Assembly: GCA_903906425.1 (NCBI GenBank)
Contig: CAIVKH010000238.1
Coordinates: 4,444-68,443, forward strand
Length of the DNA: 64,000 nt
From: an uncultured bacterium
GTDB lineage: Bacteria > Verrucomicrobiota > Kiritimatiellia > CAIVKH01
Direction of reading: 5' to 3'
Shown here in pieces: positions 28,176 through 52,654 of this stretch. The first letter of the stretch is position 1; every line of letters begins with the position of its first letter. The notes under the pieces were generated by a model. That model was not told the origin of the DNA. It was given only the letters and a program-made list of their open reading frames with translations, and searched no databases. The translations under genes were made by a program, and so were the position numbers.

Positions 28176-28213
28176 TTGGAAGTTGCGAGGGCTGTTTTTT
28201 CCAACCATTGGAA
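28167..28213. repeat. P15 pair, 32-bp phase
   Basis: Perfect copy at 28167-28181. Copy at 28199-28213 is ttccaaCcattggaa. Spacer gttgcgagggctgtttt. Confidence 0.9.
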
Positions 28214-28236
28214 ATTTTCGGGACGGATTAAGTTCG

Positions 28237-30192: not shown

Positions 30193-30236
30193 GACCAGCG
30201 CGGTCGAGCGCTGATTTCAAAAGAAAGAACCTGATC

Positions 30237-30854: not shown

Positions 30855-30863
30855 GCCTGCCGG

Positions 30864-32635: not shown

Positions 32636-32662
32636 CGCGACGCACACTTCCAATCATTGGAA
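32616..32662. repeat. P15 pair, 32-bp phase
   Basis: Perfect copies at 32616-32630 (G) and 32648-32662 (C). Spacer aatgacgcgacgcacac. Confidence 0.95.
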
Positions 32663-32683
32663 GTGTCCGGACATCGGATTTGC

Positions 32684-34132: not shown

Positions 34133-34139
34133 GGAAAGA

Positions 34140-35384: not shown

Positions 35385-35405
35385 AATGCCGCACTTTTTT
35401 CGAAC

Positions 35406-36944
35406 ATGAGCAGACCATTGGAAAATCTTCCGCGCGCGCTGGGGACGCTGGGGGTTGTCGTCACGACAATCCTCATCGCGACGTATGCGTTCATGCACGA
35501 GAATTATTTCCTGATGGCCGCCGTGGTCATCGCGGCGCCCTTGGTGGCCATGATCAACAATCCGCCGGCGTGGATCATCCTCATCCTTGCGTTGTCGCAG
35601 AGCAGCCTGATCGTGCCGGGACTGCCTCGCGGATTGCAGCTGGTGCACTTTCTCATGGCCGGCTTTGGTGCGCTGGTCATTGCGCGCAACATCATCGTCA
35701 AACCGGCGCGCCTCACGGCTCCATCGTCGTTCTACTGCCTGTGGGCCTTCGCACTTCTATGCGTTTTCATCATCTCGCAGCGCGGATTTGGCCTTCAGAT
35801 GTTTGGCGGGGCCGCAATCGGCGGGGCCGTTTACGTCAAATTCTTTATCAGTACGGGTTTTCTGCTTTGTTCCCGCTATATTGCGCTGACCCCGCGTCAA
35901 TGGCGTCTGGCCATCATTCTGATGCTTTTGGGCACATTGCTCCCTGTGGCAGCCGAAGGGCTATATGCGCTGAGCGGCGGCAAGGTCGTTTTTCAGTACA
36001 ACTTCATCGCGGCCTACGTCTCCGGCTTGCAAGACATGTTGGCATCCATGGACAGCGGTCAGGGCGTGGTTCGTTTCACCGCGCTCACATCGCTTTCCAC
36101 AATTCTTCTGATGGTGACGCTGCTGTTCACGGTACGCCGGTCGGAATTCACCCTGTTGACCGTGCTGATGACCGGTGTCTGCATCGTGATGGTCGGCCTG
36201 TCCGGGTTTCGTTCGGCCATGGTGGGAACCCTAGCCACGATACTGCTCTACTACATATTGCTCGCGCCGAAAAACCTTCGCCGGCAGCGAGCAGTTCTGA
36301 TGACGGGCATGTTTGCAGTGGCCCTGCTGGCCGTCCTGCCTTTCATGGCCCATCTGCCGCTGTCCATTCAACGGGCCTTTGCGTGGCTGCCTTTTGCGAA
36401 TATTGACCCCGTTGCACAGACGGATGCCACTGGCACGGCCACCTGGCGTCTTGAACTTTGGAAATACTGCCTCCAACAGGCTCCTGAATACCTCTGGGTC
36501 GGCCGAGGTTTCACCGTGGACACCGATATACTTTTTTCGCCCAGCGTATACAAGGATCAGATTCTGGGGCCTTGGTTCAGTCATGGCTATCACAACGGCC
36601 CCATCGGCCTGCTCATTGACACGGGCATTCCCGGCCTTCTGTGCGCCACGCTCTTTCTGCTCTTCGCAACCTTGGAGGTGTTGAAAAACGATCTGCAACC
36701 GAAGGATCGTTTCATTCACCGGTTCTTCGTGTTTATGAAGGCCCAGATACTCTGGAACATTATTGCTTTCTTTTTCATCGGAGGCAGCATCGAGACGCTG
36801 ATGACCATCTTCTTCTATCTGGCTATCTTCTACGGTCTTCAGATCACGGACATCGCGCAGGTGCAGAAGCGCGTCAAGCGTGATTTTGCCCTTGTAGATC
36901 CATCCTTCGGCAGTTCTTCGCCCGTGCGCCCTGCCAATCGCTAA
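35406..36944 (+). CDS. O-antigen polymerase/ligase (Wzy-like) family membrane protein
   Basis: At least 10 TM segments with a large loop containing ...WRLELWKYCLQQAPEYLWVGRGF..., typical of the Wzy_C/O-antigen ligase family. Confidence 0.65.
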   Translation: MSRPLENLPRALGTLGVVVTTILIATYAFMHENYFLMAAVVIAAPLVAMINNPPAWIILILALSQSSLIVPGLPRGLQLVHFLMAGFGALVIARNIIVKPARLTAPSSFYCLWAFALLCVFIISQRGFGLQMFGGAAIGGAVYVKFFISTGFLLCSRYIALTPRQWRLAIILMLLGTLLPVAAEGLYALSGGKVVFQYNFIAAYVSGLQDMLASMDSGQGVVRFTALTSLSTILLMVTLLFTVRRSEFTLLTVLMTGVCIVMVGLSGFRSAMVGTLATILLYYILLAPKNLRRQRAVLMTGMFAVALLAVLPFMAHLPLSIQRAFAWLPFANIDPVAQTDATGTATWRLELWKYCLQQAPEYLWVGRGFTVDTDILFSPSVYKDQILGPWFSHGYHNGPIGLLIDTGIPGLLCATLFLLFATLEVLKNDLQPKDRFIHRFFVFMKAQILWNIIAFFFIGGSIETLMTIFFYLAIFYGLQITDIAQVQKRVKRDFALVDPSFGSSSPVRPANR

Positions 36945-36948
36945 TTAC

Positions 36949-37701
36949 ATGCTCGGAATAAAGAGATTTCTTGAAACCACGCCTGTGGTGCGCGCGCTCT
37001 ACTGGCATTTCTTCGCACGTTGGCGCGTCGCGCGCGAGCGAGAGCGTTGGGCAACCCTTCCGGCCGACCGGGTCTTTCGTGAGATCTACGATGCGAACCG
37101 CTGGGGGGACGCAGAGTCGCGCTCCGGCACCGGCTCCAACCTGCGTGAAACAGAAACGGTCCGCAGGGAACTGGCAGCCTTGCTTCCGCGCCGCGCCATT
37201 CGCTCCATCTCCGACGTTCCCTGCGGTGATTTCTGTTGGATGTCGCGGATGGACCTTGGAAGCATTGCATATTTCGGTGGCGACATTGTGCCCGATCTCA
37301 TTGCAACGAATCGTTCCAAATACAAACAACCCGGCATTCGCTTCGAAATATTCAATCTCCTTGCCGATCCACTCCCGGCTGCGGACCTCCTGATCTGCCG
37401 CGATTGCCTCGTTCACCTCTCCCTGCGCGACATTTTCCGCGCATTGCAAAACATTCTGGCATCTGACACTCGTTTCCTCCTGACCACCACCTTCACCTCG
37501 GTCACGGAAAATCGAGATATCGTCACTGGCGAATGGCGCATGATCAATCTGGAACGCCCGCCATTCTGTCTTCCGCCTCCCTTGGAGCTGATCAAGGAAA
37601 ACTGTCGTGAACACGAAACCTCTGCCAGCAAGAGCCTGGCCTTGTGGGAAATCGCGACGCTGCGCCGCCACGCTTCCGCCTCCGGCTGGATTCAGACATG
37701 A
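36949..37701 (+). CDS. SAM-dependent methyltransferase (class I-like)
   Basis: ...ISDVPCGDFCWM..., FGGDIVPDLI..., DLLICRDCLVHLSLRDIFRALQNI. Confidence 0.55.
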   Translation: MLGIKRFLETTPVVRALYWHFFARWRVARERERWATLPADRVFREIYDANRWGDAESRSGTGSNLRETETVRRELAALLPRRAIRSISDVPCGDFCWMSRMDLGSIAYFGGDIVPDLIATNRSKYKQPGIRFEIFNLLADPLPAADLLICRDCLVHLSLRDIFRALQNILASDTRFLLTTTFTSVTENRDIVTGEWRMINLERPPFCLPPPLELIKENCREHETSASKSLALWEIATLRRHASASGWIQT

Positions 37702-37714
37702 CGAATCCCCGCTC

Positions 37715-37761
37715 ATCCAATCATTGAAAAAATGCCCTCCCCTGATTTCCAATCATTGGAA
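37715..37761. repeat. P15 pair (first copy degenerate), 32-bp phase
   Basis: aTCCAATCATTGaAA at 37715-37729 (2 mismatches). Perfect TTCCAATCATTGGAA at 37747-37761. Confidence 0.85.
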
Positions 37762-38940
37762 AACTCCGCGCCGCGCGTGATCTTCTATGTTGGCGCATTC
37801 TTCCCGACGCCCACCGGCGCGACCTATTCGGCCGTCCGCCTCGCCCGCGTCTTGCGCGCATGTGGCGTGGCCGTCTCCTTCATCGTTGAAGATCGCGGTC
37901 CCGACTGGCGGGACGGCGGAGAATATGACGGCTTCCCCGTCCGCTCATTTCCGCTGCATATGTCCGGCAAGGTGCGCAAACTTCGCGGCCTGCTGCGCTT
38001 CACACGACATGTTCGCGCCCGGAAAATCGACTTCGATATTTTCCACATTCACGGCGGCGGCTACGTCAACCTCTTCCTCTCTTGGTGGGTCGCCCTCTGC
38101 ACAGGACGGCCCGTCGTGCTGAAGATCACCTCCGACGGATGGGATACGCCGGAAGGCATGAAAGCCGAAAAATGGGGCGTCGTTTCGCTCTTCGCCTATC
38201 GTCGCCTTGCCGGTGTCGTCGCCATGACCAGCGGCCAGGCCGAAAAATGCCGCGCGTGGAAACTGCCCGCTCAAATCGCCGTCATTCCCAACGGCGTGGA
38301 CTGCGAACGCTACCGTCCGGCAACACCGGATCAGAAATTACGGCTGCGAAACGAGCTGGAAATTCCGCGCGACGCCTTCGTCCTCTGCTACCTCGGCTGG
38401 CTCGGCCACGGCAAGGGCACCGACATCCTGATCGAAACCTGGCGGCGGATGCGGCAGCGCCGCGACAACATCTTCCTGATGCTCGTCGGCGATTACCTCG
38501 CCGCGCATGGCCAGAATGCGAAGGGTGCCGTTGCCGTTCCACAATCGCCGTGGCTTCGTACCGTCGGTCGCGTGGATGATGCCGAACGCTATTTACAGGC
38601 GTCCGATGTCTTCGTCTTCCCCTCGCGCCGCGAAGGATTCGGCACCGTGCAGATCGAGGCGATGGCTTGCGGCCTGCCCTGCGTCGTCAACGATCTGCCC
38701 GGCGTCTCCTGCGATATCTACCCCGATGAATCCTGCGGCTTCCGCATCGCCGGGAATCGCGCCGAAGCCTTTGTCGAAAAGATCGGCCGTCTCTATGCCG
38801 AGCCCTCGTTGCGCGACTCGATGGGCCGTGCCGCTTGTGTCCGTGCGCAACAGTTCTTCTCGCAAGACAGCGTCGCCGGCCGCTATCTCGACTTGTACGG
38901 AAAAGTTCTCGCCACCGAGGATCGGGAAATCGAAAGGTGA
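37732..38940 (+). CDS. Glycosyltransferase GT4 family
   Basis: ...YLGWLGHGKG..., VFPSRREGFGTVQIEAMACGLPCVVNDLPG. ATG 37732 lies between the two P15 copies. The in-frame GTG 37777 (VIFYVGAFFPTPTGA) is an equally plausible start. Confidence 0.8.
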   Translation: MPSPDFQSLENSAPRVIFYVGAFFPTPTGATYSAVRLARVLRACGVAVSFIVEDRGPDWRDGGEYDGFPVRSFPLHMSGKVRKLRGLLRFTRHVRARKIDFDIFHIHGGGYVNLFLSWWVALCTGRPVVLKITSDGWDTPEGMKAEKWGVVSLFAYRRLAGVVAMTSGQAEKCRAWKLPAQIAVIPNGVDCERYRPATPDQKLRLRNELEIPRDAFVLCYLGWLGHGKGTDILIETWRRMRQRRDNIFLMLVGDYLAAHGQNAKGAVAVPQSPWLRTVGRVDDAERYLQASDVFVFPSRREGFGTVQIEAMACGLPCVVNDLPGVSCDIYPDESCGFRIAGNRAEAFVEKIGRLYAEPSLRDSMGRAACVRAQQFFSQDSVAGRYLDLYGKVLATEDREIER

Positions 38941-39699
38941 ATGAACATGGCAGCCAATATTGAGTCCGTTTCTAAAGACCGCTGGAAGGAAGCCCAGAAA
39001 TGGGAATGCAGTTACTGGGCCAGCGTCCAGACCGCGCGTGCGCGATTTGGCAAAAACTGGATGTGGCGGCTTCTGCACCTCGTCGGCGCCGTTCCCAAAT
39101 ATCGCGGCGAGGACTGGAACCAATGGTGGAGGCAGCGCTTCGACAATTACAGCTTCGTTCCCGAACGCATCCACAACGCGATCGAAGTCGGATGCGGCCC
39201 CTATACCAATGTCCGCCTCATGCTCGACCGCACCCGATTCGACCACCTTGTCCTCTCCGACCCACTCATCCGCACCTACGCCGGCTTCAAGCTCACCTTC
39301 GTTTCCGACATGTATCGAAGCATGAACTGCACCATCGACGATCATCCGCTTGAGGAACTCCCCTTTGCCTCCGACTATTTCGAGCTCGCCGTGAAGATCA
39401 ACGTGCTCGATCACGTCCGCGACGCCCGCGCTTGCATGGACACACTCGCACGTATCGTCAAACCCGGAGGCATCCTGATCATCGGTCAGGATCTCACCGA
39501 TGATGCCGATCTCGATTATCTCAAGGACGATGCCGGAGCCACAGGCCATCCAATCAAACTCCGTCACGAATGGTTCACCGAATGGCTTGGTCCACAGCGC
39601 TTCGATCCCATCATCTTCAAAGTCCTGCCCCGTGCTGAAGGCCGCGCGCCTGATGCGCACTATGCCACATTGATCTTCGCCGGCCGTAAACGCGGTTGA
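38941..39699 (+). CDS. Class I SAM-dependent methyltransferase
   Basis: IEVGCGPYTN..., INVLDHVRDARACMDTLARIVKPGGILIIGQD. Confidence 0.6.
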   Translation: MNMAANIESVSKDRWKEAQKWECSYWASVQTARARFGKNWMWRLLHLVGAVPKYRGEDWNQWWRQRFDNYSFVPERIHNAIEVGCGPYTNVRLMLDRTRFDHLVLSDPLIRTYAGFKLTFVSDMYRSMNCTIDDHPLEELPFASDYFELAVKINVLDHVRDARACMDTLARIVKPGGILIIGQDLTDDADLDYLKDDAGATGHPIKLRHEWFTEWLGPQRFDPIIFKVLPRAEGRAPDAHYATLIFAGRKRG

Positions 39700-39732
39700 C
39701 CCCCGCGAGTTCTTTCGACAACAGATGCACTA

Positions 39733-40914
39733 ATGCCCACGCCGGTTGCCATCATCGGTCCGCTCAATCCTGCGGCGCTTGGCCCGTGGTTCTCTCCGGC
39801 GGACGTAAGAGACAAGCCGCTGCCCTACCAGCAGGGCGGTGCGTTTCTCACAACCCTGCTCGCAGCCCGACTTCGGCGCGGAATGCCGACCATTGCCATC
39901 ACGTCGAACGCGGCCGCAACCGAACCGGTCATGCGTTGGTGCGGACCGCTGCTGCGCCTCTGGGTCGTACGCCGAAGAATCCGCGGATCCTTGCGCGATG
40001 GCTATCGCGAAGAAGTTCGCCTCCTTCGCGAGGCTCTTCGCGAAGCCGGCGCACCCGTGACTCACGCACACTGGACCTACGAATATTCGCTCGCCGCCCT
40101 CACGCCGGGATTCCCGCCGGCTGTCGTCACGGTCCATGACCACGCAGGAAACATGTTGAAGCATCTCGGCCCGCTTTATCTTCCGCTTTATCTCATGTCG
40201 CGGTGGACATTTCGCCATGCCGTCAAGCTCACCGCTCCCTCGCCATACATCGCCGGCTACGTCCGCGAAAAAACCGGTCGCGATGTCACGGTAATACCCA
40301 ATCTGCTTGAGGAAGATGCCCCTGTCGTTACGGCAAACCGCATCGCACGAACCAGCCACACGCCCATCGTGGTCGTTCTCGCCAACGATGCCGCTTTCAA
40401 GAACGTGCGAGGCGCTCTTTTGGCCTTTGCCCGCTGGCGTTCGCGCGGCGTCGCCGCGGAACTGCGCGTCATCGGGCCCGGTCTCCAGCCGGACAGCAGA
40501 ATCGCAGCATGGGCACGATCTCGAAATCTGGCCGATGGCGTCCGGTTCGAAGGCCCGGTCGCGCACGACGAAGCACTCGCCTCAATCGCGCAGTGCGACA
40601 TTCTCCTTCACCCGTCACTCGATGAATCGTTCGGGGGGCCGGTTATGGAGGCGATGGAAATCGGCATTCCCGTCATCGCCGCACGCGAAGCGGGTGGATG
40701 CCGGTTTCTGCTCGATGAGGGCAAATGCGGGCTGCTTTCTTCCGGTCGGTCGCCGGTTGAAATGACCGGGGCCCTCGATCGAACATGGACGAACAAAGAA
40801 GAGACCTCGGCGCGGGTGGAGGCGGCAAAGAAACGTGTACTTGTCATCTGCGATCCCGATGCCGCCTTGAGTGCCTATGAAACGTGCTATGAGGAGGCCC
40901 TGAAACGTGCATGA
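39733..40914 (+). CDS. Glycosyltransferase GT4 family
   Basis: ...THAHWTYEYSLAAL..., LLHPSLDESFGGPVMEAMEIGIPVIAAREAGG. Confidence 0.75.
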   Translation: MPTPVAIIGPLNPAALGPWFSPADVRDKPLPYQQGGAFLTTLLAARLRRGMPTIAITSNAAATEPVMRWCGPLLRLWVVRRRIRGSLRDGYREEVRLLREALREAGAPVTHAHWTYEYSLAALTPGFPPAVVTVHDHAGNMLKHLGPLYLPLYLMSRWTFRHAVKLTAPSPYIAGYVREKTGRDVTVIPNLLEEDAPVVTANRIARTSHTPIVVVLANDAAFKNVRGALLAFARWRSRGVAAELRVIGPGLQPDSRIAAWARSRNLADGVRFEGPVAHDEALASIAQCDILLHPSLDESFGGPVMEAMEIGIPVIAAREAGGCRFLLDEGKCGLLSSGRSPVEMTGALDRTWTNKEETSARVEAAKKRVLVICDPDAALSAYETCYEEALKRA

Positions 40915-41046
40915 TTCAAACGGGTTGATTGTCCCGGTTCCCGGGCGTCTCGTATTCTCGGCGCATTCATCCAGACCGGCAGAAATGACCGGCGTCATGC
41001 GAAAAATTGTTGTCAGAAGCTTCAAGACCGAGAAGTCGATTTCCTC

Positions 41047-42078
41047 ATGACCGTTCTGTTTTACGTCAGTTATCCGCTTGGCTGGGCGCGCGGCGGCCAC
41101 GCCATCCAGATTTTCGAAACGCAGCGCGCTTTGCAAAAATACGGCATCGATGTTCACTGGCTGCATCACGAAGATGAAGAGCCGGTTGATGCGCAGATAA
41201 TCCATTATTGGGGCCGTCCGCCCAACGATTTTCACTGGCAGCTCGCCCGCCAGCGCGGCCTCGGCCTGGTGATTTCGGAATTACATCAGACAAATGTCCT
41301 CCGTCCGCGCTGGACCTGGCCTCTTCGGGGAGCTTTCGCAACTCCGCTCAGGCTGATCATGGGGCGGGGTCTGTATGCCTCGCTCGGCGCGGAAATCTAT
41401 CCCAATTGCGATTCCGCTGTTGCCATCTCACAGATTGAAGCCGACTACATGCGGACCGTTTTCAAATCGCCGGAGAACCGCACGCACGTCATTCCCAACG
41501 GCGTTGATCCCGTCTTCATGGACTCGACGGTTCCGCCAGACGTTTTTGATGGCCTTGTCTGCGTTGCCTTCGTTTGTGAACGGAAGAACAACCTCGAACT
41601 CGCGCACGCCGCGAAAGTCGCGAAGGTTCCTGTGCGTTTTGTCGGCCCACCCCTCCTTCCCGGAAGCAACTATGCCCGCACTTTCGCCGGGGAAGTTGAC
41701 GGTCGCTTTGTGACATGGACCGGCGAATCCGCAACGCCGCGTCAGATCGCCTCGATATTGCGCGGCGCGCGAGGCCTTGTGCTGGCCAGCGAGAACGAAG
41801 GCCTTCCGCTCGTCGTGCTTGAAGCCATCGCCGCCGGAACGCCGGTTTTGCTTTCGGACCTGAAAAACATGCGCTCCATATTCGGCGCCAGCGTCACCTA
41901 TTGTCCGCCGGCCGATGTAAGCAATTTCAGCGGGCACCTGAAACAGTTCTGGCAGAAGGTTCGCACGCACAAGGTGGCCCCGTTGTTTGAAGTTCTCGAC
42001 TGGCAGGAGGTCGGACGCCGCTACGCCGGTCTTTACCGGCAAATCCTATCGGAAAAGGCAACCACGTCTGTCCGCTAA
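41047..42078 (+). CDS. Glycosyltransferase GT4 family
   Basis: ...VIPNGVDPVF..., VLASENEGLPLVVLEAIAAGTPVLLSDL. Confidence 0.75.
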   Translation: MTVLFYVSYPLGWARGGHAIQIFETQRALQKYGIDVHWLHHEDEEPVDAQIIHYWGRPPNDFHWQLARQRGLGLVISELHQTNVLRPRWTWPLRGAFATPLRLIMGRGLYASLGAEIYPNCDSAVAISQIEADYMRTVFKSPENRTHVIPNGVDPVFMDSTVPPDVFDGLVCVAFVCERKNNLELAHAAKVAKVPVRFVGPPLLPGSNYARTFAGEVDGRFVTWTGESATPRQIASILRGARGLVLASENEGLPLVVLEAIAAGTPVLLSDLKNMRSIFGASVTYCPPADVSNFSGHLKQFWQKVRTHKVAPLFEVLDWQEVGRRYAGLYRQILSEKATTSVR

Positions 42079-42150
42079 TGCAGCGATGCGCGACATTCGT
42101 ATTGATCAACCGGCCGGCTCCCGGCGGACGGCCATGACGGAGATTTCATC

Positions 42151-43305
42151 ATGAGCACACAACCCCGCAAAAGAGTTTTCGTCAGCGGGTGCTTCGATCT
42201 GCTGCACAGCGGCCACATCGAATTCTTCCAGCGCGCCGCCGAACACGGCGAACTGCATGTTGCCGTCGGCTCTGACAAAACGGTTTTCGAATTGAAAGGC
42301 CGCCCCCCGGTGAACAATGAAACGGAGCGGCAGTTCATGATCGGGAGCGTCGCCTGCGTTCATCGCGCATTCATTTCTCGCGGCTCGGGACTGATGGATT
42401 TCGAGCAGGAGCTTCGCGAGATGAAGCCCGATATTTTCATCGTCAACGAGGATGGCAACACGCCCGCGAAACGAAAACTCTGCGAAGAGCTCGGCATCGA
42501 CTATGTCGTCTTGAAACGACTTCCGCACGAAGGTCTCGGCGCTCGCTCGACTACCGCATTGCGCGCCGCGCCAACCATGCCGTATCGCATTGATCTTGCC
42601 GGCGGCTGGCTCGACCAGCCGTGCGTTTCGAAACATCATCCCGGCTCCGTCATCACCATTTCGCTCGAACCGCTCATTGAATTTAACGAGCGCAGCGGCA
42701 TGGCCACCAGCACGCGCCGAACTGCGATGAACCTCTGGGGTCCACGGCTGCCTGCGGGTCCGTTTGAAAAACTCGCGTGGACGCTGTTCTGCTGTGACAA
42801 CCCACCGGGCAAGCCGCACATCTCCGGATCGCAGGACTCCATCGGCATCGTATTCCCCGGCCTCGCGAAAGCGGATTATGCGGGCGGTTATTGGCCCGCA
42901 AAAATCGAGCACGTGCTCGACGAAGAACTCCTCCGCTTCGTCGAACAGCATCTTTTCCTGCTTCCGCTTGGCCCGCGAAGCGAAGCTTTCGATGTGCTGG
43001 CGAACACGCGGATCGATGAGGCCGGCGGCCGCTCGCTTTCCCGCGCCGCGGAAGCCTGCTGGCACGCAATTTTGAACCGCGATGTCCGCGCTTTTGGCGC
43101 TGCGATGACGGCATCCTTCGAAGCGCAGATCGCGATGTTCCCCAACATGGTTACGTCCTCACTACGCGAACTCATCGAACAAAACCGCGCGCGTGCGACA
43201 GGCTGGAAAGTTTCCGGTGCCGGCGGAGGCGGCTACTTGATTCTCGCCGCCGAAACCCCCGTTCCTGACTCGATCCGCATTCTCATCCGCCGCCCGCCCG
43301 AATGA
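42151..43305 (+). CDS. Bifunctional cytidylyl/adenylyltransferase-like domain fused to a GHMP-family sugar kinase
   Basis: N-terminus RVFVSGCFDLLHSGHIEFFQRAAEHG (HxGH nucleotidyltransferase fold). C-terminus ...ERSGMATSTRR... and GWKVSGAGGGGYLIL (GHMP motifs). Confidence 0.65.
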   Translation: MSTQPRKRVFVSGCFDLLHSGHIEFFQRAAEHGELHVAVGSDKTVFELKGRPPVNNETERQFMIGSVACVHRAFISRGSGLMDFEQELREMKPDIFIVNEDGNTPAKRKLCEELGIDYVVLKRLPHEGLGARSTTALRAAPTMPYRIDLAGGWLDQPCVSKHHPGSVITISLEPLIEFNERSGMATSTRRTAMNLWGPRLPAGPFEKLAWTLFCCDNPPGKPHISGSQDSIGIVFPGLAKADYAGGYWPAKIEHVLDEELLRFVEQHLFLLPLGPRSEAFDVLANTRIDEAGGRSLSRAAEACWHAILNRDVRAFGAAMTASFEAQIAMFPNMVTSSLRELIEQNRARATGWKVSGAGGGGYLILAAETPVPDSIRILIRRPPE

Positions 43306-44168
43306 ACCCGCAGTTCTCCATCGTAACGCCCTGCTTCAACGGCCGCGCTCTTCTGCCGCGGTGCGTCGGCTCGATCCGCGGGCAGAAGGATGTAACGTTC
43401 GAGCATCTCATCCATGACGGCGGCTCGAGCGATGGCACGGTGGAGTGGCTCAGAACTCAGGAAAACCTTGCCTGGCGGAGCAAAAAAGACGCTGGTATGT
43501 ATGATGCGATTAACAACGGCTGGTCGCGCGCGCGCGGTGAATTCCTGTCATGGCTCAACGCCGATGAGCAGTATCTGCCCGGTACGCTCGCCCGCGTCGC
43601 GCGCGCGTTCCGCGAAAACCCGCAAGCCGACGTCGTGTGGGGCGACACGATCATCGTCGATCCCGACGGCAACCCCATCGCCGCCCGCCGCGAAATCCCG
43701 CTGCGTGCGACATACGTGAAGAATGGATTCCTCTACGCGCTTTCGTGCAGCTATTTCTTTCACCGACGCCTGTGGGACGAAAAGATTCTTCCGTTTGATC
43801 TCTCCTTCCGCGTCGCCGGCGACGCGGACCTGATGATGCGGCTTCTCACCGTGCGTCGCCGGTTCGTCAAACTCGACGCATATCTCGGACTTTTTGGCGT
43901 GGATGGATCGAATCTCAGCGTAAAACAAAAGCAACGGATGGACGACGAGGGCGCAATCATCCGCCAGCGCTACCACGCGTTCGGCTCCGTCGCGCTTCGC
44001 AAACTTGTGCGCGCGGTCCGCTGCGTCGAGCGCCTGCTAGCCGGTTGTTACCGCAACGACAATCCTGCCTTCGACTTCGCGACCGATGAGAAACCATCCT
44101 ACCGCCGGGTGACTTGTTTGCGGGTCACGGCGCGGTTCTCTTACGATTCCGCGCTGGCGTCCCGATGA
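43302..44168 (+). CDS. Glycosyltransferase family 2
   Basis: FSIVTPCFNGRALLPRCVGSIRGQ...HLIHDGGSSDGT..., WLNADEQY (DxD-like). ATGA overlap with the upstream gene. Confidence 0.85.
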   Translation: MNPQFSIVTPCFNGRALLPRCVGSIRGQKDVTFEHLIHDGGSSDGTVEWLRTQENLAWRSKKDAGMYDAINNGWSRARGEFLSWLNADEQYLPGTLARVARAFRENPQADVVWGDTIIVDPDGNPIAARREIPLRATYVKNGFLYALSCSYFFHRRLWDEKILPFDLSFRVAGDADLMMRLLTVRRRFVKLDAYLGLFGVDGSNLSVKQKQRMDDEGAIIRQRYHAFGSVALRKLVRAVRCVERLLAGCYRNDNPAFDFATDEKPSYRRVTCLRVTARFSYDSALASR

Positions 44169-44172
44169 GAAA

Positions 44173-44220
44173 TTCCAATCGTTGGAAAGCTTCGATGCCG
44201 GACACTTCCAGTCAGTGGAA
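44173..44220. repeat. P15 pair, both copies degenerate, 33-bp phase
   Basis: ttccaatcGttggaa at 44173-44187 and ttccaGtcaGtggaa at 44206-44220. Confidence 0.75.
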
Positions 44221-44229
44221 AACAAAACC

Positions 44230-44949
44230 ATGAAACTCCTTCGCGAAAAACTGGCGCGCATGAAACAAATCGAACCCGCGGCGCTCGCGTCAATGAGCAC
44301 CTGCGATCTGCTCGGCGTTTGCGCGACTGTCGCGACGCGAATGATCCGCGGAGCATGGATGAAGTTACGACTACCGAACGTCAACGGTTGGATGCTTGCG
44401 GACAAGAACGCGCGGGTGCTTCACGGGCGACACCTGCGCACCGGCAGGCAATTCAGCATGGAGGAAGGCTCGATGATCATCGCACTTTCTAAACGCGGAA
44501 TTGTTTTCGGAGAGCGATGCACTGTCGGACGTTTCGCCTACATCGCGCCGACGAATCCGTTGCTCGGTGAACCCGGCGAGGGTTTGAAAGTTGGCGATCA
44601 TTCGAACATCGGCCCGTATTCATACATTGGCTGTTCCGGCTTCATCGAAATCGGCAGCAATGTGATGATGGGCCCACGCGTAAATTTGATGAGCGAAAAT
44701 CACGAGTTCGCACGCACCGACATCCCGATGAAATCGCAGGGCGTGAAACGCGAGTTCATCAAGATCGAAGACGATGTCTGGATCGGTGTGAACTCGACGA
44801 TTCTTGCGAGTGTCACCGTGGGTCGCGGTGCGATTATCGCTGCAGGCTCCGTCGTGACGAAAGATGTCCCGCCGATGACCATCGTTGCAGGTGTGCCATC
44901 GCGGGTGATTCGCGAGCGCAGTTCCTCGGAAAAACCTTCCGATGCTTGA
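44230..44949 (+). CDS. Hexapeptide-repeat (LbH) sugar O-acetyltransferase
   Basis: ...VGDHSNIGPYSYIGCSGFIEIGSNVMMGPRVNLMSENHEF..., IEDDVWIGVNSTILASVTVGRGAIIAAGSVVTKDVPPMTIVAGVPSRVI. Confidence 0.85.
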   Translation: MKLLREKLARMKQIEPAALASMSTCDLLGVCATVATRMIRGAWMKLRLPNVNGWMLADKNARVLHGRHLRTGRQFSMEEGSMIIALSKRGIVFGERCTVGRFAYIAPTNPLLGEPGEGLKVGDHSNIGPYSYIGCSGFIEIGSNVMMGPRVNLMSENHEFARTDIPMKSQGVKREFIKIEDDVWIGVNSTILASVTVGRGAIIAAGSVVTKDVPPMTIVAGVPSRVIRERSSSEKPSDA

Positions 44950-46234
44950 AGTTCTCACGCGAAGCGAACGACCCGATCCCGCGTGGATCGCGGCGCAGTT
45001 GCCGTCCGGCGATTATCGGAAGATCGTCCTCAAACCGAACTGGGTTCAGCACGAAGTCTCGCCGGACTTTCCGATCCGCGCGCTCGTCACATCGGCCGCG
45101 ATCATTGATGCGACGATTCGGGCCTGCCTCGAAAAATATCCGCATGCGGAACAGATCCTCGTCGGCGATGTCCCGCTGCAAGGCTGCGATTTCGATTTGA
45201 TGCTTATGCAGTCTGGCGCGGATCTGGTCGCGAAGAACTTTGCGGATTACAAATCGCCGAAAATTGTCTTTCGCGATTTGCGTCGCGAGCGGTTCGAACT
45301 GCGAAACGGATTCCTGACGGAAATCCGCACTGGCGGTTTCGGTGATCCGGCTGGCTATCGAGAAATCGTGCTCGATGAAAAAAGTCTTCTCGAACCGGTC
45401 AGCGCCAGCCGGGAGCGATTTCGCGTTTCCGACTACGATATCAAACGCATCCAGAGCAGCCACCGCCACGGCCATCACCGCTACCTGTTCTCCGGATCCG
45501 TGCTTGCCGCCGATCTTTTCGTGAATCTGCCGAAGATGAAGACGCACCAGAAATCCGGCATCACCGGCGCGCTCAAAAACGTCGTCGGCTGCAACGGCGA
45601 AAAGGCGTTTCTGGTCCACTATCTCAAAGGCCGCCCGCAAAACGGCGGCGACGAATTTCCACCCGACATCGCGTGGCCGATTGAACTCCAGGTTCGCGTC
45701 CGCGAAGCGTTGCAAAAGAAATCCCGCGCGGCGTTCGCGGCGCTACAGCCCGCCTGGCGCGCGATGAAAAAACTCTACGGCATCCGCACCGAGGGCACGC
45801 GCGAAAATCTCGGCGGAAAATTCTATCTCGCCGCCGGCGCGTGGCACGGCAACGACACAATCTGGCGGATGGTTTATGACCTCAATCGAATCATCCGCTT
45901 TGCTCCGGCCGACGGCGGTACGCTGCGCGATACGCCGCAGCGCGCCTACATCGCGATTCTCGACGGCATCATCGCCGGTGAAGGCAACGGCCCGCTGCAG
46001 CCGCTGCCCGTCCAATCCGGCATTCTTGCCGCCAGCGACAATCCCTTCACTCTCGATCTCGCAATGGCGCGACTGATGGGTTTCGACCGCGAGAAAATCC
46101 CGCTTCTTTCGCATCGTACCGAATTCGGCAACTGGTCCGCTATCGACGATGCGACCCTGGCGAAAATCGATTTTCTTGCGCCTGTGAAGACATTCGTCGC
46201 GGCACCGGGCTGGCGCGGCCATATCGAGTTGTGA
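44942..46234 (+). CDS. DUF362 domain protein (paralogue 2)
   Basis: IVLKPNWVQHE..., VNLPKMKTHQKSGITGALKNVVGCNGEKAFLVHY, WHGNDTIWRMVYDLNRI. Collinear with 25552..27006. Confidence 0.6.
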   Translation: MLEVLTRSERPDPAWIAAQLPSGDYRKIVLKPNWVQHEVSPDFPIRALVTSAAIIDATIRACLEKYPHAEQILVGDVPLQGCDFDLMLMQSGADLVAKNFADYKSPKIVFRDLRRERFELRNGFLTEIRTGGFGDPAGYREIVLDEKSLLEPVSASRERFRVSDYDIKRIQSSHRHGHHRYLFSGSVLAADLFVNLPKMKTHQKSGITGALKNVVGCNGEKAFLVHYLKGRPQNGGDEFPPDIAWPIELQVRVREALQKKSRAAFAALQPAWRAMKKLYGIRTEGTRENLGGKFYLAAGAWHGNDTIWRMVYDLNRIIRFAPADGGTLRDTPQRAYIAILDGIIAGEGNGPLQPLPVQSGILAASDNPFTLDLAMARLMGFDREKIPLLSHRTEFGNWSAIDDATLAKIDFLAPVKTFVAAPGWRGHIEL

Positions 46235-47607
46235 ACACACACCTTCTTACCTACCTAAATCTGCAGCGCCTCATCGGCTCGCGCTGCGATCTGCACTATC
46301 GCGAGTTCCAATCATTGGAAAAGGCGGACGCGGAAACTTCCAATGATTGGAACTCGGCGAAACTCGAATCGCTCTTGCGGGACGCGGCGGAAAAAATTCC
46401 GTTTTATCGCGGGGTCGTCGCAAGAAAATCTCCGGCACTTTCCGACTTTCCGGTTCTGACGAAGGAAACAATTCGTGCGCGGTATTTCGATTTGATGTCG
46501 CCGCTGTTGCGGGCGGAATACGAGGCGAACGGCGGAAAATGTCCGCAACGCTACGGCTGGCTCGAAGTGAAGACAGGCGGTTCGACGGGTGTTCCGCTTG
46601 CTGTGATTCATGAGAAAGATTTTCGCGATCTCGACCGAGCATCGCGGATTTATCAGCAGGATTTGTGCGGCTTTCCGTTCGGCACGCCATATTTTCGTTT
46701 GTGGGGTTCGATGGCGGACATCAATGCGATGAAAGATTCGCGGCTTCATCGCACAATGACGGCATTGGCGCGCGAGGAATTGCTCAACGCGTTTCGGATG
46801 GAAGAGGCGCAGATGGATTTGTATCTCGACCGGATTGACCGCAGCGATGTCCGCCACATGATGGCCTACACAGACGCGGCATTCGCGCTCGCACGGCACG
46901 CGCGCAGGCGTGGGAGAGAAATTCGTCCGCTCAAAAGCATCATGGCGTGTGCGGGAACCGTGACGGACGATATCCGCGCGGAGCTTCGCGAAGTTTTCGG
47001 CGCGCGCATTCACAACAAATACGGGAGCCGCGACGCGGGCGAGATGGCTATCGAATGCGAGCGCGGCGGGCTTCACGAACTTTCGACTGCGATACATCTC
47101 GAAATCGTGGACGCAAACGACAGGCCATGTGCGCCGGGCGTTTCGGGCCGACTGCTGGTGACGTGCCTGTGCAATTTCAACTTCCCGATCATTCGCTACG
47201 AAATCGGCGATGTCGCCGCGTGGTCGGGCCGCGCGTGCGAATGCGGAAGACCGCAGCCGGTTTTGGAAAGGCTTGAAGGCCGTTGCGTCGAATTTGTCAC
47301 TCGCGAAAACGGCGATTACGTTTCGCCGATTTTCGTGATTCATATTGTTGGCGTGGTTCACAATCCCGGTTTCATTGAACGATTCCAGCTTGAGCAGACC
47401 GGCGCGTCGGAATTCGTGTTGCGCGTCGAAACAAAAACGCCGCTGACAGATTCTGCGCGCAATTCCTGGTGGCCCGCTCTGGAACGCGATTTGAAAACAG
47501 TTTTCGGCGCGGGCGCCCGGCTCGATTTGTATCTGACCGATAGAATTCCCGAAAGCGGCAGCGGAAAGTTTCTTTATGTTATCAATCGTCTTGGTGCGTT
47601 CAGATGA
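46231..47607 (+). CDS. Phenylacetate-CoA-ligase/CapK-family adenylate-forming enzyme
   Basis: ...LLRDAAEKIPFYRG..., KTGGSTGVPLAVIH (AMP-binding P-loop-like). The GTG start overlaps the upstream TGA (GTGA). The N-terminal ...REFQSLEKADAETSNDWNS... is encoded by the P15 pair. An alternative in-frame TTG at 46375 cannot be excluded. Confidence 0.7.
   Translation: MNTHLLTYLNLQRLIGSRCDLHYREFQSLEKADAETSNDWNSAKLESLLRDAAEKIPFYRGVVARKSPALSDFPVLTKETIRARYFDLMSPLLRAEYEANGGKCPQRYGWLEVKTGGSTGVPLAVIHEKDFRDLDRASRIYQQDLCGFPFGTPYFRLWGSMADINAMKDSRLHRTMTALAREELLNAFRMEEAQMDLYLDRIDRSDVRHMMAYTDAAFALARHARRRGREIRPLKSIMACAGTVTDDIRAELREVFGARIHNKYGSRDAGEMAIECERGGLHELSTAIHLEIVDANDRPCAPGVSGRLLVTCLCNFNFPIIRYEIGDVAAWSGRACECGRPQPVLERLEGRCVEFVTRENGDYVSPIFVIHIVGVVHNPGFIERFQLEQTGASEFVLRVETKTPLTDSARNSWWPALERDLKTVFGAGARLDLYLTDRIPESGSGKFLYVINRLGAFR
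46306..46352. repeat. P15 pair within the 5' part of an ORF, 32-bp phase
   Basis: Perfect copies at 46306-46320 (C) and 46338-46352 (G). Spacer aaggcggacgcggaaac. Confidence 0.95.
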
Positions 47608-48791
47608 AGATTCTCTTCACGGGACACAATGCGGATTTGTACGGCGCGAGCCGCTCTCTGTTGCGGCTCGCCTCCCGGCTCGTACGCGATGGAAATGAAA
47701 TTGTCGTCGCACTTCCCGACGATGGGCCGCTCATCAGCGCATTGAAAACTACGGGCGTTGACGTGCGGATTCTCCCCGACATGGCGATTGCGGAGCGCAA
47801 ATCATTTGCGAGCTGGGCCGGCCGACTTTCGCTTCCGGCGGCAACGCTGGCCTCGAAAAAATCCTTTGTGAAATTGATTCGCGAGGTGAAGCCGGACATC
47901 GTTCACACAAATTCGTCGGTGATCCTCTCGTCAGGCTGGGCGGCGAGTTCGGAGAAAGTCCCGCACATCCAGCACGTCCGCGAATTCTATTCCGACTTCG
48001 GAAAGCTCTGGCCGTTGTATCGCTGGTGGCTTCACCGCTACGCATCGTATGTCGTGTGCGTTTCGGAGGCCGTCGCGGCGCAGTTTGAGAATCGCAACAG
48101 CGTCATCGTTTTTCACAACGGATTTCCACGCGATGAATTTCCACCGGTGAAGATCGAATGCGGCCTGAGGTTCCGCGCGCGATTCGGAATTCCGGTCGAT
48201 GCACCGCTGGCCGGAGTTGTCGGCAGAATCAAATTGAAACGTAAAGGCCAGGAGACGTTCATCGCGGCGGCGGCGCTGATTCACGACAGATTTCCTGATG
48301 CGCGTTTCGCGATCATCGGGAGTCCGTTTGCAGGAAACGAGGATCACGAAAAAGAATTGAGGCGGTTCGCAGGCGAGCACGGAATTTCTGACCGCGTAAT
48401 TTTCTGCGGCGAATGCGATGACATGGGCGCGGCATATTCCGCGCTCGATATTGTGGTGCTCGCGTCGGGGACGCCGGAGCCGTTCGGTGGAGTCGTGATC
48501 GAAGCGATGGCGAATGGTCGGGCGGTGATCGGGACGGATATCGGCGGCACGCGCGAGCAGATCGCAAATGGCACGACGGGTTTGCTAATTCCGCCGGACG
48601 ATCCGTTCGCGATGTCGAAGGCGATGGCGCGTCTTTTCTCCGATCCGAAATATCGCGAGGAAATGGGCGATGCGGGACAGCAACGATTTTTGCAGCAGTT
48701 CGAATTCGAGCCATTCTACGAAAAGATGACCGGCCTTTATCGCGAGACGCTGGACTGGTATTCGCGGCCGAAGAAACGCGATCTGAAATGA
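47604..48791 (+). CDS. Glycosyltransferase GT4 family
   Basis: MKILFTGHNADLYGASRSLLRL..., VLASGTPEPFGGVVIEAMANGRAVIGTDIGGTREQI. ATGA overlap. Confidence 0.85.
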   Translation: MKILFTGHNADLYGASRSLLRLASRLVRDGNEIVVALPDDGPLISALKTTGVDVRILPDMAIAERKSFASWAGRLSLPAATLASKKSFVKLIREVKPDIVHTNSSVILSSGWAASSEKVPHIQHVREFYSDFGKLWPLYRWWLHRYASYVVCVSEAVAAQFENRNSVIVFHNGFPRDEFPPVKIECGLRFRARFGIPVDAPLAGVVGRIKLKRKGQETFIAAAALIHDRFPDARFAIIGSPFAGNEDHEKELRRFAGEHGISDRVIFCGECDDMGAAYSALDIVVLASGTPEPFGGVVIEAMANGRAVIGTDIGGTREQIANGTTGLLIPPDDPFAMSKAMARLFSDPKYREEMGDAGQQRFLQQFEFEPFYEKMTGLYRETLDWYSRPKKRDLK

Positions 48792-49945
48792 AAATTGCAC
48801 TCCTTGGTTCGCGCGGAATTCCGGCGCGGTACAGCGGGTTCGAGACGTTCTACGAACAGCTCGGCACGCGGCTGGCCGCGCGCGGGCACGCGGTCACCGT
48901 TTACAATCGTTCGCATTTCATCAAGGACGTCCGCGGTGAATTTCGTGGCGTGCGGCTCGTCTCGCTGCCGTCGATCCCGACAAAGCACCTCGACACGCTG
49001 ACGCACACGGCGTTCTCGGCGCTGCACGCGCTGACGCAGGGCTTCGACATCGTCTATTTCGTGATCGTCGGCAACAGCCCGCTGGTCTGGATTCCGCGAA
49101 TGGCCGGCGCGCGCGTGCTGCTGAACGTGGACGGCGAGGACTGGGCGCGCGAAAAATGGGGCGCGTTCGCGCGGTGGTATCAACTGCAGTGCGAGAAAAT
49201 CGCGACGAGGACGGCGCAGGTGATCATTTCCGACGCGCACGGAATCGAGGAGCGCTACCGCGAAAAATATCACGCGGCGTCGGTGTTCGTGCCGTACGGC
49301 GCGAACGTGGCGCGCGACGAGCGGACCGACGCGCTGGCAAAGTGGGGCCTCGCGCCACGCGATTACATTTTTTACGTCGGACGTTTCGTGCCGGAGAACG
49401 CGATTGATGTTTTGATCGAGGCGTTCCGCGGACTCGATACGAAGACGAAGCTTGTCCTCGTCGGCGATGCTCCGTTTGCCGACGACTACAAGGCGAAGTT
49501 GCGCGCGATGGGCGCGGGTGATCCGCGAATCGTCTTCACCGGCTACGCTTTTGGCGATGATTACAAGCAGCTCAGCAGCCACGCGCTGCTCTACGTCCAG
49601 CCGTCGGGCATTGATGGAACGCGGCCCGCGCTGCTGGATCAGATGGGCTTCGGCAATTGTGTCGTGGTACGAAATTCAAAAGTGAACCTCGAAGTGATCG
49701 CCGGTGCCGGCGCCAGCTTCGACCGGAACGATCCCGTGAACTCGTTGCGACGAACGTTGTCGGACCTGCTGGCGAATCCGTCGCGAATCGAAGAGTTGCG
49801 TCTACTGGCGCGGAATCGAATCGAATTCTATTACAACTGGGAGTGGATCACGGAATTTTACGAGGATCTGTTCCGGCGGTTGATCGAGAAACGCGCGGCG
49901 ATTTCGTACGACGAGTTCTTGCAGGCAAGAACAAAGGGCAAATGA
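48788..49945 (+). CDS. Glycosyltransferase (DUF1972 N-terminal domain plus GT1 C-terminal domain)
   Basis: MKIALLGSRGIPARYSGFETFYEQLGTRLAARGHAVTVYNR..., FYVGRFVPENAIDVLI... ATGA overlap. Confidence 0.7.
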   Translation: MKIALLGSRGIPARYSGFETFYEQLGTRLAARGHAVTVYNRSHFIKDVRGEFRGVRLVSLPSIPTKHLDTLTHTAFSALHALTQGFDIVYFVIVGNSPLVWIPRMAGARVLLNVDGEDWAREKWGAFARWYQLQCEKIATRTAQVIISDAHGIEERYREKYHAASVFVPYGANVARDERTDALAKWGLAPRDYIFYVGRFVPENAIDVLIEAFRGLDTKTKLVLVGDAPFADDYKAKLRAMGAGDPRIVFTGYAFGDDYKQLSSHALLYVQPSGIDGTRPALLDQMGFGNCVVVRNSKVNLEVIAGAGASFDRNDPVNSLRRTLSDLLANPSRIEELRLLARNRIEFYYNWEWITEFYEDLFRRLIEKRAAISYDEFLQARTKGK

Positions 49946-50841
49946 CCATGGGCACGGCACAGCGACTTCTGCCCGCCTGCGTGATCGCCACGCTGGTGTT
50001 TGTGTTGTTCCACTTCTTCGGCGTCACGGATCTCGGCTACGATCCGGCAACGGTGACGCGCTCGTTGTTTGTGTGGATCGCGCGGCGGTGGGTGGTTTAT
50101 TCGGCCAGCCAGGATGATTTTCCTTACGGATGGGCCGCGCCGTTGGTTTGTTTGTGGATGGTTTGGCGGCTGCGTCGCGAGTTTGCCTCCGTGGCAAAGC
50201 GGCCAAATGTCACCGGCTTTGCAGTAATCGTATTTGCGTTGTTGCTGCACTGGCTGGGCGCAAAGACGCAGCAGACACGTATCTCGATTGCCGCATTCAT
50301 GCTGCTGGTTTGGGGAATCCCGTTTTATTTTTTCGGGTGGCCGGTTGCGCGCCGGTTGATCGCGCCAGTGGGATTCCTGGTTTTCACGGCACAATTCGAT
50401 TTCCTGTTCGGTGCCGCCTCGATGTTGCGGTGCACTGTCGCGGAACTGGGCATGATTCTTCTCAACGGGCTGGGCGTCCACGCCAGGTTACCCGACGCGA
50501 CAACGCTTCAGGCCGGCGACACGGTCATCTCGATTGCCAAACAACCCGGCGGGTTGCGGTCAGTGATGTTGGTGATGGCTTCGACGTATCTACTGGCCTG
50601 GATGAGGCAGCGAGGCTTGCTCCGCCAAATCCTGCTGATCGCGTCCGCGCCTCTGGTCGTGCTGATGGCCAGCGTCGTGCGGACAATTCTGCATGCGATC
50701 GCCGGGGACTACGCGGGAAGTTTTCCCGTTTTTTATCTTTTCGCGGTGTTGCTTCTCCTGGCCGCGCACAAATTGATTGGACGCGACTGGCAGAAGAAGA
50801 TCGGGCGAATCAGGCGGCATTTACCGGAAGCGCTGGAATGA
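49942..50841 (+). CDS. Exosortase/EpsH-like polytopic membrane protein lacking the canonical catalytic Cys
   Basis: ATG 49942 overlaps the upstream TGA. PYGWAAPLVCLWMVWRLRREF resembles the exosortase N-terminal motif. ISIAKQPGGLRSVMLV sits where exosortases have xAEACSGLRSL. Confidence 0.55.
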   Translation: MTMGTAQRLLPACVIATLVFVLFHFFGVTDLGYDPATVTRSLFVWIARRWVVYSASQDDFPYGWAAPLVCLWMVWRLRREFASVAKRPNVTGFAVIVFALLLHWLGAKTQQTRISIAAFMLLVWGIPFYFFGWPVARRLIAPVGFLVFTAQFDFLFGAASMLRCTVAELGMILLNGLGVHARLPDATTLQAGDTVISIAKQPGGLRSVMLVMASTYLLAWMRQRGLLRQILLIASAPLVVLMASVVRTILHAIAGDYAGSFPVFYLFAVLLLLAAHKLIGRDWQKKIGRIRRHLPEALE

Positions 50842-50845: not shown

Positions 50846-51577
50846 ATGAGCATTTTCCGTCCATATTTTATGACGGTTGTCGCGCTGGCGGCGGGAATCA
50901 TCGCGGCGTGGCGCGCGCGCGATGTCACGTACGATCCCGAGCCCGCCATCAGGCTTGAGCTTCCCGATCGTGCCGGGCCTTGGCGCGGCGAAAAGGAACT
51001 TTGCTGCCAGAATCCGAAATGCGAAAAGCTATTCCTGCTCTCAGAATTAAACGGCGCGAAAAAATGTCCGTCGTGCGGTGGTGCGTTGGGCGACATGATG
51101 CCTGCGGAAAAAGAATTGTTACCGCCCGACACGTATTTCCGCCGTTCAATTTATTCGACAGGAGACAACCGGCATCTCGCCGCCGCGATCGTGCTGAGCG
51201 GCAAGGACCGCGCGAGCATTCACCGCCCGGAAGTCTGTTTCACCAGCGCCGGCAACGACATTGTCTCCAGCGAAGATGTGCGGGTCAATTTCGACGGCCG
51301 TAGGCCGCTGTCTGTGCATGTGATCATTTTGCGCGCGGGCGCCGGCGACTCCGCTTCATATTCCTTTTTTTCATATTGGTTCGTTGCCAGGGGCCACGAG
51401 ACACCGTCGCATGTTGCGCGCATGTTCTGGATGGCCGCCGACCGGATTTTTCACAACGTTTCCCGCCGCTGGGCCTATGTCTCCGTCTCCGGAGCCATGA
51501 CGCCCGGCTCCGACTCCCACCTCGGCGATCTCCGCGCCTTCCTGCGCGACTTCGTCCCGCAGCTCGCCCCGCGCTGA
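50846..51577 (+). CDS. EpsI-family (exosortase-associated) protein with a Cys-rich insert
   Basis: N-terminal TM segment, ...IHRPEVCFTSAGNDIV... and ...FSYWFVARGHET... resemble EpsI. The extra segment CCQNPKCEKLFLLSELNGAKKCPSCGG is at about nt 51002-51076. Confidence 0.6.
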   Translation: MSIFRPYFMTVVALAAGIIAAWRARDVTYDPEPAIRLELPDRAGPWRGEKELCCQNPKCEKLFLLSELNGAKKCPSCGGALGDMMPAEKELLPPDTYFRRSIYSTGDNRHLAAAIVLSGKDRASIHRPEVCFTSAGNDIVSSEDVRVNFDGRRPLSVHVIILRAGAGDSASYSFFSYWFVARGHETPSHVARMFWMAADRIFHNVSRRWAYVSVSGAMTPGSDSHLGDLRAFLRDFVPQLAPR

Positions 51578-52056: not shown

Positions 52057-52074
52057 GTTGAAAGGAAGCAGAAC

Positions 52075-52635: not shown

Positions 52636-52654
52636 TTTTCGATTTTAGATTTCC

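Follow-up and report, generated by a model that had tools for sequence, protein, structure and literature searches.

An exosortase-like gene at the end of a polysaccharide operon

We analyzed a 64-kb stretch of contig CAIVKH010000238.1 from an uncultured bacterium of the Kiritimatiellia (the window; all positions are counted from its first nucleotide), in which the open reading frame (ORF) at 49942-50841 encodes a polytopic membrane protein related to the exosortases (EpsH/Xrt). An original prediction, made from the DNA sequence without database searches, had proposed that the catalytic Cys of this exosortase homologue is replaced by Pro. The quoted ORF, its translation and its motifs were all present: residues 61-79 read PYGWAAPLVCLWMVWRLRR, and ISIAKQPGGLRSVM was confirmed too. 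Translation from an alternative start at 49948 would yield a protein of 297 amino acids (aa). The gene and the residues found at its catalytic motifs are:

49942..50841, plus strand: Cys-less exosortase (EpsH/Xrt) homologue, 299 aa, 8 predicted transmembrane (TM) helices
50545..50547, plus strand: Pro202 (codon ccc) in the catalytic-Cys column of the C-x-G motif by MAFFT and hmmalign; Cys in 108/108 canonical sequences
50548..50562, plus strand: G203-G204-L205-R206-S207; Gly, Arg and Ser of CSG[IL]RS kept, Ser changed to Gly at 203
50671..50682, plus strand: S244-V-V-R247 in the N-x-x-R position; Asn lost, Arg kept
50704..50718, plus strand: G255-D-Y-A-G259 in the H-x-x-x-G (HDYSG) position; His lost, the placement being our reading of an insert region

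The sole Pfam family matched by this protein was PF09721 (Exosortase_EpsH), with 81.2 bits against a gathering threshold (GA) of 25.7 over residues 40-259. This upholds its assignment as an exosortase homologue and excludes membership in a different membrane protein family, the alternative that the prediction had named. A scan of the NCBIfam models returned exosortase models only, every one of them under its curated cut-off:

XrtW: 72.4 bits, cut-off 425, below
XrtA: 67.6 bits, cut-off 208, below
TIGR02602 (8TM_EpsH): 62.1 bits, cut-off 105.55, below
TIGR04178 (active-site signature): 16.2 bits at residues 197-262, cut-off 23, below

Since the Pfam model is passed while TIGR04178 and the curated models are failed, the product is a true homologue with a degenerate signature region.

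Degeneration of the catalytic motifs

The invariant residues of the EpsH family sit in the motifs C-x-G, N-x-x-R and H-x-x-x-G, and the Cys, Arg and His, which cap three successive TM helices on their outer side, were proposed as a catalytic triad (Haft et al. 2006, PMC1569441). Exosortases have been described as cysteine proteases with almost no variation at these three residues (Haft 2006, PMC1569441; Haft 2023 preprint). Homologues were collected by a word-indexed search, which gave 14 proteins out of 5.8 billion clusters, and by a profile search run exhaustively over 1.84 billion representatives, which gave 5603 matches, 97 of them at E <= 1e-30. Columns were assigned with MAFFT and with an hmmalign profile alignment of 160 sequences to the family hidden Markov model, and 108 representatives made up the canonical set.

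Both alignments confirmed the placing of Pro in the Cys column, which the first reading had done by eye; the codons caa ccc ggc ggg at 50542-50553 correspond to Q201, P202, G203 and G204. Across the canonical set the CSG[IL]RS columns hold C in 100%, S in 98%, G in 100%, R in 82% and S in 93% of the sequences. In the subclade of the window protein, described below, G204 and R206 are kept in 100% and S207 in 93% of the members. The degeneration goes deeper than had been noticed, as the invariant Asn (now Ser244) and the His of H-x-x-x-G (now Gly255) are also lost. The Asn and the Arg of N-x-x-R are both present in 100% of the 108 canonical sequences; within the subclade the Ser is found in only 33% and the Arg in 60%. 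An HDYSG-type motif was identified in 92 of the 108 canonical sequences, in about 0 of the 42 members of the Cys-less group and in 0 of the 14 other subclade members, and that the window protein has no conserved His at this site is a direct result of the alignment. H251, in RTILHAIAG, was considered as the missing His and rejected: it fits the pattern, but it lies 4 residues past R247, within a helix, and it is common only to the window protein and to one homologue (P0002).

C13, C70 and C164 are the only cysteines of the protein, as had been stated, and none is conserved. The profile alignment placed none of them in the catalytic column, including C164 (MLRCTVAEL), which had been named as an example of a Cys that might occupy it. 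C164 comes one residue after the family-conserved R163 and is A, Q, T, S, F or V in the nearest homologues of the clade, the position of C70 is mostly Ser in the nearest homologues, and that of C13 is variable. A substitute Cys or a new nucleophile was thus rejected, because these three cysteines are unconserved and because there is no subclade-specific nucleophilic residue. The protein lacks three residue-level features of a competent exosortase and fails all curated cut-offs; for these reasons it should be filed as an exosortase-like protein and not as an exosortase.

A clade of Cys-less homologues

The ten nearest homologues (46-58% identity), from Logan, ENA and JGI metagenomes, have Pro, Ala, Val or Ile where the Cys would be, and G-G-[LIV]-R-S comes next. 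The change had been said not to be explained by a simple frameshift, and the occurrence of a non-Cys residue in the same column of ten independent metagenome homologues bears this out and shows that it is no artefact. Four further 50%-identity representatives (P0015-P0018) belong with these ten. Trees were built by neighbor joining only, from 150 sequences; in them, 41 Cys-less representatives and one Cys-bearing protein without the Arg and the His (P0045) formed one group of 42. The window subclade, with 15 members and the motif x-G-G-[LIV]-R-S, was recovered in 34 of 40 bootstraps when the catalytic motif columns were removed. A second homologue search with a mixed profile (A1) added 107 proteins, all of them Cys-bearing, and left the subclade no larger.

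The wider Cys-less set, with motifs of the DPASGLG, DSTSGIF and DPISGIF types (P0012, P0019, P0021, P0023, L005, L007, L016 and L017), resembles the window protein in having lost the Cys and the His motif, in standing beside EpsI where glycosyltransferase operons end and in coming from metagenome-assembled genomes (MAGs) of the Planctomycetes-Verrucomicrobia-Chlamydiae (PVC) type. Most of its members keep N-x-x-R and have lost the Arg that follows the Cys column, whereas the window subclade shows the reverse, with G-G-L-R-S kept and the Asn lost. Several of the wider set pass TIGR04178 because N-x-x-R is kept; the typed NCBIfam exosortase cut-offs were reached by none of the ten Cys-less representatives scored. 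A scan of the GTDB genome representatives yielded only seven loci, at 30-37% identity, of which four were canonical, two (L005 and L007) belonged to the wider Cys-less set and one was truncated; no member of the window's own subclade was found among the GTDB species representatives scanned. The nearest genome representatives were Verrucomicrobiota and Kiritimatiellia MAGs, and one of the related loci (L008) contains PSCyt, PSD1 and DUF1501 genes, so that the sources of the Cys-less homologues look like members of the PVC superphylum, mostly from metagenomes.

Selective constraint

Full-length ORFs were found in at least 11 clusters at 46-58% identity, and the subclade alignment has 41 invariant columns. 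Intact ORFs on six independent contigs gave pairwise Nei-Gojobori ratios of nonsynonymous to synonymous divergence (dN/dS) of 0.22-0.68, values that are only rough because dS is close to saturation. The mean column entropy around the Cys motif was 1.09 bits in the canonical set versus 1.58 in the subclade, which reached 1.87 around N-x-x-R. Over residues 40-180 the canonical mean was 1.89 and that of the subclade 1.24. The surroundings of the Cys, which are the best-conserved part of the canonical proteins, are thus less constrained in the subclade than the N-terminal two thirds, an inversion of the canonical pattern. Most of the residues conserved in the subclade are conserved in the canonical exosortases too, namely S41, W45, W50, P67, R78, R113, G132, P142, R163, G178, R206 and S207, and those specific to the subclade are F60, P61, M73, G203, W220, R222, P237 and Y265, none of which offers a new nucleophile.

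By their sequences, the subclade proteins look functional. That the gene is instead decaying, either as a recent pseudogene or as a functionless exosortase remnant, would fit the loss of three motif residues and the scores below all curated family cut-offs. It is highly improbable given the many full-length ORFs, the invariant columns and a dN/dS below 1, together with the conserved synteny and translational coupling and the confident fold prediction presented below.

PEP-CTERM proteins and the question of another nucleophile

The absence of a PEP-CTERM gene from the window, reported in the original prediction, was reproduced with a regular expression for such tails across the 64 kb. The same expression, applied to 18 related loci, gave only one match, in L016 (Kiritimatiellae MAG GCA_025054615.1; 6010-6858, minus strand, and 9015-10798, plus strand), where a genuine PEP-CTERM protein ending in ...VPEPSTVALAALGVLGVVVRTIRRK* is encoded three genes from the exosortase homologue. 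PEP-CTERM genes are usually dispersed, and for this reason the negative results in the window and in the related loci say little. The L016 homologue carries Thr in the Cys column (DSTSGIYAL), and from its sequence a Thr or Ser nucleophile is possible in this sub-group.

The protein of the window could likewise be a still-active peptidase or transpeptidase with another nucleophile, either Ser207, perhaps helped by His24 where TM1 meets the periplasm, or Cys164, which is peculiar to the window protein. Within the subclade R206 is invariant, S207 reaches the 93% given above and H24 is conserved in 87%, C164 adjoins the family-conserved R163, and Thr or Ser fills the Cys column in some members of the wider set (DSTSGI[FY]A; L016, L017 and P0021), among them the L016 homologue encoded near a PEP-CTERM gene. 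But S207 and H24 are equally conserved in the Cys-bearing relatives and are therefore not compensatory gains, and C164, C70 and C13 are unconserved even among the closest homologues. Moreover, the Pro, Ala, Val and Ile that the subclade carries in the Cys column are incapable of a nucleophilic role, the Asn and the His are lost as well, R247 is kept in only 60%, and the constraint on the motif regions is relaxed. We consider such an activity quite unlikely.

Predicted structure

An AlphaFold2 (AF2) model of the exosortase-like protein, built from a 14-sequence alignment, had a predicted local distance difference test score (pLDDT) of 85 and a predicted template modelling score of 0.79. Its helices span residues 5-25, 65-83, 90-109, 112-131, 133-176 (kinked), 205-222, 226-254 and 256-280. 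A three-stranded sheet at 181-197 comes directly before P202, and the P202 column opens a TM helix; Haft et al. 2006 (PMC1569441) likewise put the Cys at the start of a TM helix after a loop. Applying the positive-inside rule to the model, we infer that the Cys column marks the periplasmic start of TM6. R247 would then lie close to where TM7 reaches the periplasm, and the site of the lost His motif would fall in the periplasmic turn that leads into TM8. The predicted topology, with about 8 TM helices and the motif residues at outer helix ends, agrees with that of Haft.

The EpsI partner

The gene that follows encodes an EpsI-like protein, as had been claimed; its ATG at 50846 lies 4 nucleotides past the stop of the exosortase-like gene. 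Its features are:

50846..51577, plus strand: EpsI/DUF3485 partner, 243 aa, with an N-terminal TM anchor and a periplasmic domain (PF11984, AF2)
51002-51076 (residues 53-77), plus strand: four-Cys insert (C54, C59, C74, C77 at 51005-51076), C-x4-C ... C-x2-C, about 37 residues
51215-51238 (residues 124-131), plus strand: invariant SIHRPEVC motif (S-I-H-R-P-E-x-C), from alignments

The protein passes PF11984 (66.3 bits versus 26.1) and falls marginally below TIGR02914 (40 versus 42.8). It keeps the EpsI family features, namely the SIHRPExC, YWF and RWAY motifs and the N-terminal TM anchor, and differs from more distant EpsI proteins in the extra four-Cys insert, which is common in this lineage whatever the Cys status of the exosortase.

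The insert lies between the TM anchor and the core domain. From its sequence it could be zinc-ribbon-like or, equally, could form two disulfides in the periplasm. Its four Cys are invariant in all seven EpsI partners of Cys-less exosortases, and 50 of the 54 nearest EpsI homologues have it, the four most distant (P0320-P0323) being those that miss it. The original prediction had suggested a link between Cys-less exosortases and EpsI proteins with this insert. The insert is real, but an exclusive link is unsupported because it also accompanies Cys-bearing exosortases. A canonical exosortase with DPCSGIRS, GN..R and YHDYSG motifs (L015) stands beside a four-Cys EpsI, which rules the insert out as a marker of Cys loss, and most of the fused canonical exosortase-EpsI proteins nearby have a matching Cys pattern. 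Directly after this locus, on a 1.12-Mb metagenomic contig, L015 has a cluster of transposase, integrase and recombinase genes (11400-20153) of the DDE_Tnp_1_4, rve, resolvase, Mu-transposase C and IstB families.

The AF2 model of EpsI had a pLDDT of 94. Its best PDB fold matches in Foldseek were weak (E about 2.5e-3, probability up to 1.0, TM-score about 0.44 on the target) and comprised the DUF1795/Eag chaperones SciW and EagT6 of the type VI secretion system as well as DcrB, PsbP and LpqN. The structures of SciW and EagT6 were solved bound to effector transmembrane domains, and the modeled likeness hints that EpsI may bind a hydrophobic ligand, either a helix or a lipid.

One could also place the functional, possibly catalytic, centre in the S-I-H-R-P-E-x-C motif of EpsI, which offers a His, an Arg and a lone periplasmic Cys, and regard the exosortase-like protein as a membrane dock only. 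H126, R127, P128 and C131 are invariant in 47 of 47 stand-alone EpsI homologues, the partners of Cys-less exosortases included, the motif is present in 51 of 56 fused exosortase-EpsI proteins (P0020-P0159) irrespective of the exosortase Cys, and the EpsI model is a confident one. But the motif is equally invariant in the EpsI partners of canonical exosortases and hence did not originate alongside the Cys loss as a substitute. We regard this placement of the active centre as unlikely.

The polysaccharide operon

The exosortase-like gene had been described as closing a polysaccharide locus, and it does stand at the end of a co-directional operon of about 26 kb (about 25.5-51.6 kb), whose 3' end has the order DUF1972-GT4, Xrt-like, EpsI. 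The other parts of the operon are:

48788..49945, plus strand: DUF1972-type GT4 glycosyltransferase, whose stop overlaps the start of the exosortase-like gene (ATGA at 49942-49945)
25552..48791, plus strand: remainder of the operon, with two DUF362 genes, DegT aminotransferase, AsnB-like amidotransferase, acetyltransferases, methyltransferases, Wzx, Wzy-like, GT4/GT2 and CapK-like genes

The Wzx flippase begins at 32657, the Wzy-like polymerase at 35406 and the CapK-like ligase at 46231. Hexapeptide acyltransferases, a GFO/IDH oxidoreductase, a cytidylyltransferase and at least seven glycosyltransferases are also encoded; the window ORFs that were scanned included none identified as a priming transferase, Wza or Wzc.

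A glycosyltransferase or priming-transferase gene followed by the Xrt-like and EpsI genes, overlapping or abutting, was also found in L008, L009/L010, L011, L012, L013 and L014, with the order glycosyltransferase, Xrt-like, EpsI specifically in L008, L009 and L011. In all subclade members examined, the gene closes a glycosyltransferase operon on its 3' side together with an EpsI gene that it overlaps or directly adjoins.

L011 and L017 have a DUF362-CapK-GT4 block in common. The pair formed by DUF362 and the CapK-like protein (a PaaK-type ligase) recurs in the window (25552-27006 and 44942-47607, with two DUF362 genes), in L011 (2325-4990) and in L017 (2366-5085), each time shortly before the glycosyltransferases and the Xrt-like and EpsI genes. 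This suggests that the polymer is modified with acyl groups or amino acids.

Functional interpretation

The original prediction had spoken of a catalytically inactive or mechanistically different relative of the exosortases, and the loss of the Cys, the Asn and the His across the clade supports it. The sequences give good support to the view that the proposed Cys-dependent mechanism has been lost: with the Cys (Pro202), the Asn (Ser244) and the His (Gly255) gone, the acyl-enzyme intermediate proposed for exosortases and archaeosortases should not form. The explanation that we favor, and hold to be probable, is that the protein is a non-catalytic exosortase paralogue (a 'pseudo-exosortase') in which the fold, the face presumed to bind the ligand and the partnership with EpsI persist and which serves the polysaccharide machinery without cleavage.

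The protein keeps the predicted 8-TM fold, along with most residues that the family conserves in its N-terminal two thirds and on the periplasmic face. The exosortase-like gene would be co-translated with the last glycosyltransferase of a Wzx/Wzy-type operon and with EpsI, and it is this synteny and translational coupling that point to a positive function. The Xrt-like/EpsI pair may thus be a stoichiometric, non-proteolytic part of the machinery for polysaccharide assembly or export, in which the two proteins would form a complex. The scaffold or receptor function suggested in the original prediction would most likely take the form of a membrane platform that binds the ligand of the exosortase groove and presents it uncleaved to EpsI; this ligand could be a lipid-linked acceptor or the hydrophobic anchor at the C-terminus of a protein. 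A more tentative idea, to which we give a low but appreciable probability, is that the exosortase fold, besides proteolysis, performs another task in polysaccharide assembly jointly with EpsI, whose HRPxxC motif or Eag/DcrB-like fold may provide the chemistry or the carrying; the clade would then be a natural 'separation-of-function' variant in which this task alone is left.

Several points weigh against the proposal of a non-catalytic paralogue. S207 and H24 are conserved in the subclade, as in the nearest canonical relatives, and the sequence is compatible with activity. The search for a second exosortase gene and for PEP-CTERM substrates, which gave neither, covered the 64-kb window alone, and the dN/dS values have the roughness stated above. 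The whole Cys-less set was recovered in only 15 of 40 bootstraps (neighbor joining, catalytic motif columns removed), and on this account a single origin of all Cys-less forms is not established. A sequence search of the PDB with the family profile gave nothing better than E = 2.7, and when the AF2 model was compared with PDB structures in Foldseek no match reached E <= 0.001, which leaves no solved exosortase against which the active-site geometry could be checked.

Relation to known systems

The window protein is homologous over residues 40-259, and in its 8 predicted TM helices, to the exosortases (EpsH/XrtA; PF09721, TIGR02602 and TIGR04178) and to the archaeosortase ArtA. It shares with exosortases the location in an exopolysaccharide locus beside EpsI as well as G204 and R247, and differs from them in the three lost motif residues (Cys in C-x-G, Asn in N-x-x-R, His in H-x-x-x-G). 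No PEP-CTERM gene accompanies it within the window. Pseudoenzymes exist in most enzyme families. Among polytopic proteins, the iRhoms and derlins are inactive members of the rhomboid family that have lost their catalytic residues, are conserved and act by binding; this is an analogy and not a homology, as fold and kingdom are unrelated. As a kind of finding, a pseudoenzyme is thus precedented, and it is new for the exosortase family. No description of Cys-less exosortases was found in the literature searched, where an earlier mention in archaeosortase work is possible, and no NCBIfam model captures them.

To our knowledge, neither the acceptor molecule of exosortases nor the role of EpsI is known. 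The Cys-less clade bears on the roles of both proteins in polysaccharide loci: since a clade without the nucleophile keeps the fold, EpsI and the place in the operon, selection on the exosortase scaffold would concern a function besides proteolysis. Such a clade is a natural means of telling binding or assembly functions apart from cleavage. There is also a consequence for annotation, in that pipelines based on Pfam will label these genes 'exosortase' and may infer PEP-CTERM sorting where none may operate.

Other genes of the window

Downstream of the operon, at 51676-53944 (plus strand), there are genes for a double TFIIB-type zinc-ribbon protein, LemA and an M48 peptidase, followed by one for a dihydroorotase-like protein. 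LemA followed by an M48/TPM-type gene is part of a common envelope-stress-like trio, and these genes are apparently unrelated to the operon. Upstream of it, a PMT_2/ArnT-like polytopic glycosyltransferase (20433-22133, minus strand) is located between an enolase gene and several ORFs without family matches (17678-21035). A 517-aa protein encoded at 6018-7571 (plus strand) has a 'choice-of-anchor Q' domain near its C-terminus (NF041518, 33 bits versus 25), with no recognisable sorting signal C-terminal of that domain, and a weak match to NosD-like beta-helix proteins.

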